A DNA stretch of 64,000 bases from Felis catus (GCF_018350175.1 NC_058368.1:109618001-109682000), one strand, 5' to 3'. Shown: positions 36,902 through 38,940, counted from the first letter of the stretch. Translations and numbers: made by a program. The notes: generated by a model from the letters alone, not told the origin.

Positions 36902-37040
36902 TTAGTTAACTAAGTAAGCAAATGGCAAGAAACAAGACAGACACAAAGAATATCTGAAATAAGTGTCTTTGATTGATGTTATACCCAAAGAACCTAGGAA
37001 ACAGCAGATGACGCATACCCATTTACAAAATATTAATTTA
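36902..37040. repeat. Arm B of an inverted repeat flanking AFF4 exon 2 (intron 2 side)
   Basis: 36902-36936 matches the reverse complement of 38906-38940 at 34/35, and 36989-37040 matches the reverse complement of 38831-38882 at 44/52. Confidence 0.9.
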
Positions 37041-37472
37041 ATTCAGAAAGGTGAAATGTCTGCCCAGGATTAGTGGTAAAGCCAAGAATATAGAGATAAA
37101 TGCTTGAGTTAGTCCAGACCACATTTAAGACTATGAGATAGCAAAGGGGAGATGGAAGGAGGTATGGGTTTGAGGACAACTTTAGGATGCTAACAATATT
37201 GTTTCTTGATCTAGATACTGATTATATAAGAGTGTTCATGTTGTGAAAATTCTTTCAGCTAAAACACTTGTTTTGTGTACCTTTCTGCATGTTATACTCC
37301 AATGACAAGTTTATCCCCAAAAAGGTGATTCTGATTTAGAGGAAAGGAAAAAATGTTAAATGGTATACATATTAGTAACTCTTTCCTACTATAAAAATTC
37401 AATTTTAAACACTTTCTTCAAAGGAAAACTGTCACACTACTGGCGGGGGGGAACATTCAAAGGACAACTTAC

Positions 37473-37595
37473 AACTTTGTATGGCTCAGCAAAGAGAGGA
37501 GAGCTAGGTGGGAAGGCGTCTTCGCCCTGCTGAATTTCCTGATTCCGCCTTTCCCGTTCTTTCATACGCAGCACATTTCGGTCTTCACGGTTCAT
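37473..37595 (-). CDS. AFF4: AFF4 first coding exon (exon 2; exon spans 37473-37599 including 4 nt of 5'UTR), aa 1-41
   Basis: Minus strand reads tctcttcttag|caacATG and translates [41 protein letters not shown], the AFF4 N-terminus. It ends at GTT|gtaagt, phase 0, 123 coding nt. Confidence 0.97.
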
Positions 37596-37852
37596 GTTGC
37601 TAAGAAGAGAAACACAATCTTTGTATTACAAAAAGAAAAATTAAATGTTCTGTACTCACTTTGTGAGTTTAAAGCTTCAATCAGAGATTCCCTTTCAAGT
37701 TCCAAGTAATAACAGGCATTAGTGCTGAAGCTGGGTACTGGTAATGGTTTTACCAACTAATACCAAGTGTCTTGCATAGCTATCGAGACAGGAAACACTA
37801 GCCCAGAGTATTAGGATCCACCCCATTGAAACATTTAACCTCATCAATTTTT

Positions 37853-38068
37853 TTTTTAATTTTTTTTTTCAACGTTTATTTTTGGGACAGAGAGAGACAG
37901 AGCATGAATGGGGGAGGGGCAGAGAGAGAGGGAGACACAGAATCAGAAACAGGCTCCAGGCTCTGAGCCATCAGCCCAGAGCCTGACGCGGGGCTCGAAC
38001 TCCCGGACCTCGAGATCGTGACCTGGCTGAAGTCGGACGCTTAACCGACTGCGCCACCCAGGCGCCCC
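37853..38068 (-). mobile_element. Young felid CanSINE in intron 1
   Basis: TSD acctcatcaattttt. Confidence 0.93.
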
Positions 38069-38436
38069 ACCTCATCAATTTTTAAAGAATTCAGCTAGCT
38101 AAAAGTCAGCTAAAACTTATGGAAGGTAGTACTTAAACCCAAATCCTTAGCATTTCCTATAAGCCTTTCATGCTTCCTCTTCAGAAATCTAACTATTCTT
38201 TGCCATTAGAGGCACACAACCCACTCCCACCTACCACTCCCTTCCCCCAGGTATCCAGTGCTTTTCTCTACTTTGCATCTCCTTATCTTGATTCCTTTTT
38301 GTCTCAAACACAGCTTCCTTGGTGTCCATCCTTATGGCAGTTTGACCCCGCTTTGCTGTTGCTCTAGATTCCCTAAAAAAACGACATTTCTGCTCTAAAT
38401 ACATTAATATTTCAATTAATACCTCAATAAATGGCA

Positions 38437-38645
38437 GGGGCACTGGGTGGCTAAGTTGGTTAAGCATCCAACTTCGACTCAGGTCATGATCTCACAATTT
38501 GTGAGTTCGAGCCCCGCATTGGGCTCTATGCTAACAGCTCAGAGCCTGGAGCCTGCTTCAGATTCTATGTCTCCCTTTCTCTCTGCCCCTCCCCTGCTCA
38601 CGCTCTGTCTCTGTCTCTCAAAAATAATTAAATGTTAAAAAAAAG
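38437..38645 (+). mobile_element. CanSINE
   Basis: TSD atacctcaataaatggca. Confidence 0.92.
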
Positions 38646-38830
38646 ATACCTCAATAAATGGCAAAACTGAGGCTTTCAGCAATAGAATCTAAAAATAACT
38701 TGAGTTAGTAATAGTAGTCGAAATTGTACTGAAAAAGAGTCAGTCCTTTGGGGTGGAGGGGAAAATGAGAGGGTCATTTCTATAAACATTACAGCATTTT
38801 GTATTTTCACTAGGAAGAAAACAAAGAAAA

Positions 38831-38940
38831 TGAATTAAAATTTTGTAAATGGGTACACATTATCTGTTGTTTCTTAGGTTCTCTTTCAGAGATATTTGCC
38901 TCTCCCTTGTTTCTTGCCATTTGCTTGCTTAGTTAACTAA
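38831..38940. repeat. Arm A of an inverted repeat flanking AFF4 exon 2 (intron 1 side)
   Basis: Its reverse complement ttagttaactaagcaagcaaatggcaagaaacaag...agaacctaagaaacaacagataatgtgtacccatttacaaaattttaattca aligns to 36902-37040. Confidence 0.9.

Follow-up and report, generated by a model that had tools for sequence, protein, structure and literature searches.

The start-codon exon of AFF4 in Felis catus is flanked by two intronic arms that are reverse complements of each other and lie about 1.8 kb apart, on opposite sides of exon 2. We read these arms, with a probability of roughly 0.6, as an old, locus-specific local inverted duplication of AFF4 intron sequence that has been drifting neutrally. 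According to folding models, the transcribed arms can form double-stranded RNA, and a first-pass annotation of this DNA had taken them for a long-range duplex switch acting on exon 2. If this were true, it would be a notable means of regulation, since removal of the start-codon exon would leave an AFF4 scaffold unable to recruit the P-TEFb kinase. A dedicated splicing switch at the arms is, however, unlikely.

An inverted repeat brackets AFF4 exon 2

AFF4 is encoded on the minus strand of the window, the whole 64,000-nt stretch of F. catus DNA analysed here, to which all coordinates refer and which is dense in tRNA-derived carnivore SINEs. Exon 2 (37473..37599, minus strand, 127 nt) has an AG acceptor and a GTAAGT donor with its GT at 37472; it opens with four untranslated bases, followed by the ATG at 37595 and 41 codons. 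Exon 3 starts at 34325, and its protein opens TSKEDKLSS.... The first ATG of exon 3 in any frame lies at 34286-34284 (minus strand, the exon start to this ATG covering 34284..34325); it encodes the in-frame Met55 and has an A at -3. The gene model of the first-pass annotation, with the exon 2 ATG at 37595 and M55 at 34286, matches the sequence in all these respects. No CpG island lies upstream of exon 2 inside the window. One is present at window-equivalent 71100-72600 (genome 109689100-109690600), about 34 kb upstream of exon 2, with a GC content of up to 0.78 and an observed/expected CpG ratio of about 1. This island is probably the AFF4 promoter with exon 1, so intron 1 would be about 34 kb long and exon 1 would lie outside the window. 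Intron 2 also contains a plus-strand open frame (34572-34811) near the exon 3 acceptor, the translation of which resembles what we take to be a LINE-1 ORF2 fragment.

In transcript order, arm A (36897..37043, minus strand, 147 nt) follows the exon 2 donor by 430 nt within intron 2, and arm B (38828..38945, minus strand, 118 nt) precedes the exon 2 acceptor by 1229 nt within intron 1, giving one and the same exon a complementary segment in each of its two flanking introns. In a gapped alignment, 99 of the 118 aligned positions are identical (83.9%), the differences being 13 transitions and 6 transversions, with one indel of 28 nt (an extra segment in arm A) and one of 1 nt; the middle block has decayed. 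The block counts reported previously are right: 36902-36936 matches 38906-38940 at 34/35 positions and 36989-37040 matches 38831-38882 at 44/52, and the nine mismatches in these blocks on the minus-strand RNA are three G-U, five A-C and one U-U. A one-sided bulge of about 28 nt, said to join the blocks, is present as the single 28-nt indel. The reported 14-bp palindrome is indeed perfect, although its length was understated: it spans 18 bp, is centred on TTAA and lies at the outer end of arm A (36899..36916), and arm B carries an imperfect copy of it.

The match between the arms is far beyond chance. Comparing the two flanks of exon 2, BLAST of arm against arm gave E = 8.6e-15, and at whole-genome scale the E values were 2.5e-9 and 2.2e-9. 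The arms cofold at -132.2 kcal/mol, compared with -51.2 +/- 4.3 kcal/mol for 100 shuffles of one arm.

Copy number of the arms

By sequence search, the arms are single-copy and belong neither to SINE or L1 nor to any other detectable multi-copy element. In the cat's own 2.43-Gb genome, each arm found two first-look candidates, itself and its partner, even at E <= 10. The neighbouring SINE_b, used as a control, returned 1647 candidates, so this search is able to see repeats. Within the window, 405 inverted pairs were found at E <= 1e-8, and only the arm A/arm B pair matches nothing else there. The earlier statement that the arms resemble neither SINE nor L1 therefore holds in the window (405 inverted pairs) and in the genome (two candidates per arm). 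Being unique in both, the arms are not ordinary copies of a high-copy transposon (two candidates compared with 1647), the outcome that the first-pass annotation had named as speaking against its proposal. By eye, no terminal repeats of their own, target-site duplications or poly-A tail were seen at the arm boundaries. Rfam yielded no credible family across 36000-39500; two hits there, at 28.5 and 15.2 bits, fell short of the gathering score of 70.

Counts from the own-genome search are lower bounds, since family members of less than about 70% identity may go undetected. As diverged copies may escape it, we probed the same genome with three short cores, allowing mismatches. Core 1 was found at 26 places versus 1 in a reversed control; the 24 places outside the arms share only 19-61 nt with them (20-37 nt in 22 of the 24), and the longest match, L011, reaches about 75% over 55-61 nt. 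Core 3 was found at 24 places versus 21 in the reversed control, which is no excess.

Core 2 occurred at 230 places versus 30 in the reversed control, and its flanks were compared for 20 of the 228 non-arm places. Fourteen of these 20 (L036 and L038-L050) are members of a single repeat family, probably LINE-1, whose copies resemble one another across hundreds of bases, and a further two (L037 and L052) match only each other. Resemblance of the 20 places to the arms is confined to 19-25 nt at the probe, and no alignment is longer than that of L048 (66% over 71 nt). The core-2 excess was rejected as a sign of membership in a repeat family, only a motif of about 20 nt being common to the arms and the compared places (20 of 228). 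One 21-nt piece of the repeat (36989-37009 / 38862-38882) lies within 2 mismatches of a multi-copy family motif; because the similarity does not go beyond 19-25 nt, the sharing of this motif appears coincidental.

Divergence of the arms

With two sequences at hand, the mismatch pattern is the sole internal test of selection. On the transcribed minus-strand RNA, the 13 transitions correspond to 7 G-U and 6 A-C pairs, compared with 6 and 7 on the opposite strand, and the cofolding energies of sense and antisense arms are alike (-132.2 versus -133.6 kcal/mol). There is therefore no strand-specific preference for wobble-compatible changes. The 28-nt indel is uncompensated. Judged on these features, the divergence of the arms looks neutral; it amounts to 16% substitutions, or a K2P distance of 0.185. 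Given this distance and a neutral rate in mammals of about 2.2e-9 per site per year, the duplication would have occurred roughly 40 My ago.

Competition with SINE duplexes

The folding of this region involves four SINEs: SINE_a (36344..36585) in intron 2, and SINE_b (37860..38097), SINE_c (38426..38644) and SINE_d (39783..40013) in intron 1. SINE_b precedes the exon 2 acceptor by 261 nt in the transcript, and each of the other three is inverted relative to it, with SINE_c nested in the loop between arm A and arm B. The SINE_a/SINE_b pair is 90% identical over 242 nt, cofolds at -458.5 kcal/mol and brackets exon 2 more tightly than the arms do. SINE_b and SINE_c cofold at -324.0 kcal/mol, and SINE_d matches SINE_b at 97% over 194 nt. 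Copies of SINE_b that are 100% identical over 209 nt exist elsewhere in the genome, marking SINE_b as a very young insertion; the potential of SINE_a/SINE_b to loop out exon 2 is therefore evolutionarily very recent.

Folds were computed for minus-strand RNA as nested minimum-energy models, which ignore kinetics, proteins and pseudoknots. In 36300-40050 (3751 nt), a 3.75-kb context that is an arbitrary slice of the approximately 34-kb intron 1, the minimum-energy fold (-1252.6 kcal/mol) pairs SINE_d with SINE_b over 187 bp. This helix encloses arm B and thereby excludes arm pairing, leaving the arms with 0 bp. Forcing 81 arm base pairs in the same context gave -1168.3 kcal/mol, 84 worse, with 100 bp of arm pairing alongside SINE_c/SINE_b. 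When SINE_d was masked (-1164.7 kcal/mol), SINE_b paired with SINE_a over 221 bp around exon 2 and the arms again contributed 0 bp. With all four SINEs masked (-687.3 kcal/mol), the arms paired over 99 bp and formed the dominant long-range helix. Folding 36850-39000 only gave -749.3 kcal/mol, with 103 bp of arm pairing and 179 bp of SINE_c/SINE_b.

These models suggest that the arms would have dominated folding before the SINE insertions, and that today they would be one of several near-exclusive pairing alternatives. The long duplex around exon 2 envisaged in the first-pass annotation is thus reproduced for the arms in isolation (-132.2 kcal/mol) and disappears in the 3.75-kb fold (0 bp). Its interpretation as a switch is not supported, given the near-even count of 7 G-U and 6 A-C pairs, the uncompensated 28-nt indel and the stronger SINE duplexes, overlooked in that annotation, that likewise bracket exon 2 or trap arm B and exclude arm pairing in the minimum-energy fold.

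AFF4 exon 2 in distant vertebrates and in the literature

A degenerate exon-2 pattern identified two metagenome contigs with a vertebrate AFF4 exon 2, L003 (exon at 2501-2630, 89% exon identity to the window) and L004 (1407-1539, 77% exon identity, with the extra-glycine variant QQGGGEAF). Both appear to be non-mammalian vertebrates, present as host DNA in environmental samples. The same pattern matched 0 stretches in prokaryotic genome contigs and 0 in viral contigs; a 21-mer core match in a Maribacter MAG was discarded as a chance hit. The exon 2 boundaries of both contigs are the same as in the cat, and since exon 2 has these boundaries in distant vertebrates, one transposon cannot have carried it in. 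When the contigs were compared with the window, the exon alone aligned and no intron sequence was common. Neither contig has an inverted repeat of more than 30 nt near exon 2, which means that not all vertebrates carry the repeat.

In the super elongation complex, AFF4 serves as the scaffold and binds P-TEFb through its first 70 residues. Within this region, residues 34-66 contact Cyclin T1, according to the available text of PMC3589825; if skipping of exon 2 occurred, a start at M55 would remove residues 34-54 of this segment, which is the protein consequence that had been predicted. The matches listed in our literature search (10 of 103) did not contain AFF4, and none dealt with skipping of its exon 2 or with an isoform that starts at Met55. 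Human circAFF4 comprises exons 2-5 and not exon 2 alone, as described in the accessible portion of PMC13224429, so that here the exon 2 acceptor is back-spliced and the partner intron is one other than intron 2. The exon make-up of circAFF4 was not found in the available parts of the mouse and BM-MSC circAFF4 papers, and a bovine circRNA paper names AFF4 only as a host gene.

The sections available of PMC8052449 report that exons looped out by complementary regions have lower inclusion and that such regions are enriched around circRNAs. They also describe conserved complementary pairs that loop out exons as depleted genome-wide, which argues that selection would act against a start-codon exon being strongly looped out. 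AFF4 has no entry in five supplementary files of PMC8052449, to which the full catalogue of pairs of conserved complementary regions (PCCRs) is external.

Origin of the arms and alternative explanations

We favour a history in which a stretch of AFF4 intron, some 120-150 bp long, was copied to the far side of exon 2 in inverted orientation, likely by a replication template switch or by templated break repair. The arms are a unique pair 1.8 kb apart, the arrangement of a single local copy of nearby unique sequence, and inspection of their boundaries by eye showed neither junction microhomology nor a target-site duplication from which the mechanism could be told. The duplication would be older than the felid SINEs that now occupy the loop and its surroundings, and the arms would since have drifted apart like neutral DNA, through 16% substitutions and the 28-nt indel. 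Pairing of the arms in the pre-mRNA, imperfect and about 100 bp long, could still loop out exon 2. Such a duplex would be a plausible ADAR substrate and might make a minor contribution to back-splicing or to the looping-out of exon 2; in the present-day transcript it would have to compete with much stronger SINE-SINE duplexes. What counts against a local duplication is the 84% identity of the arms, with a block of 34/35, which would be remarkable if the event predates carnivores.

It is very improbable, in our judgement, that both arms descend from one interspersed repeat, ancient and low in copy number, or are the two inverted termini of an old DNA transposon, with other copies too diverged to detect. 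The TTAA-centred palindrome at the outer ends would suit such an origin, as would the surplus of core-1 near-matches over the reversed control (26 versus 1) and the fact that own-genome counts are lower bounds from a search that can miss weak similarity. However, independent old insertions should differ from each other as much as from other copies, whereas the arms are about 84% alike and nothing else is detectable in 2.4 Gb. Similarity does not extend into the flanks of the 24 core-1 and the 20 compared core-2 near-matches, and by eye neither terminal repeats within either arm nor a target-site duplication was seen. Alternatively, the arms may pair in vivo and be edited by ADAR, or aid the formation of a multi-exon circAFF4 from exon 2, as a by-product with no selected function. 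Helices of 35 bp (with one A-C mismatch) and 52 bp are consistent with this, as are the narrow-context fold, which pairs 103 bp of the arms alongside SINE_c/SINE_b, and the back-splice of human circAFF4 at the exon 2 acceptor (PMC13224429, accessible portion). We nevertheless hold it to be unlikely, given that an exon 2-5 circle needs an intron 1 partner in intron 5 and not in intron 2, and that the SINE duplexes are far more stable.

For selection to have shaped the arms as a long-range RNA duplex that tunes skipping of exon 2, and with it production of an AFF4 starting at M55, and/or an exon-2 circRNA, seems to us quite improbable. Several features are as this proposal would have them: the pair is unique and non-repeat, its cofolding energy is -132 kcal/mol compared with -51 for shuffles, and arm pairing becomes the dominant helix once the SINEs are masked or the context is narrowed to 2.15 kb. 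M55 is moreover the first AUG of exon 3, with an A at -3, residues 34-66 bind Cyclin T1 (PMC3589825, available text), and reduced inclusion of looped-out exons and enrichment of complementary regions around circRNAs are on record in the sections available of PMC8052449. Against these stand the lack of an excess of G-U over A-C on the sense strand (7 versus 6), an antisense fold that is equally stable (-133.6 versus -132.2 kcal/mol), the one-sided 28-nt indel with the decayed middle block, and the 84 kcal/mol that forcing the arms costs relative to the minimum-energy fold with SINE_d/SINE_b. Exon 2 also holds the start codon, and conserved exon-looping pairs are depleted genome-wide in the same sections of PMC8052449. 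The two non-mammalian vertebrate contigs lack the repeat around exon 2, and skipping of AFF4 exon 2 appears in no paper among the matches listed. A stronger version, in which the repeat is older than carnivores and has been kept by selection as a duplex setting a low, regulated level of exon 2 loop-out to yield Met55-start AFF4, with the felid SINEs as recent modifiers, strikes us as barely credible.

Relation to known exon-flanking complementarity

Non-repetitive reverse-complementary matches flanking circularised or skipped exons have reportedly been described by Zhang et al. 2014 and Ivanov et al. 2015, and the Sry inverted repeats are a named example of exon-flanking complementarity. The AFF4 arms belong to this known class of exon-flanking reverse-complementary matches. 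They share with it complementary segments on both sides of an exon, a duplex that would loop the exon when the arms fold in isolation, in the narrow context or with the SINEs masked, and the same proposed mechanism, the general pattern being set out in the available sections of PMC8052449. They differ in that the AFF4 arms are known from sequence alone, that the looped exon is a 127-nt start-codon exon and that the arm duplex is weaker than the co-resident SINE pairs.

Inverted SINE/Alu pairs at back-spliced exons have the same geometry, SINE_a/SINE_b at exon 2 being an example. Unlike the single-copy arms, SINE pairs are independent insertions of a high-copy family (1647 candidates). The PCCRs of Kalmykova et al. 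2021 (PMC8052449, available sections) likewise consist of long-range intronic complementarity able to loop out an exon; they are, however, defined by cross-species conservation, whereas the AFF4 repeat is absent in two distant vertebrates (L003 and L004). FoSTeS/MMBIR-type templated insertions resemble the AFF4 repeat in being a short copy (about 120-150 bp) within 2 kb of its template, here now decaying; by contrast, the AFF4 copy is inverted, and junction microhomology is not evident.

If the arms were a selected duplex after all, the locus would produce a natural super elongation complex scaffold without residues 34-54, unable to hold P-TEFb. As a local inverted duplication, the reading that we prefer, AFF4 would instead be a locus at which exon-flanking complementarity arose from a single-copy event, with no transposons needed. 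Neither this transposon-free origin nor the override by SINEs would surprise a specialist. Later SINE insertions can overwhelm such a structure, and AFF4 thus offers a caution for circRNA and loop-out predictions.
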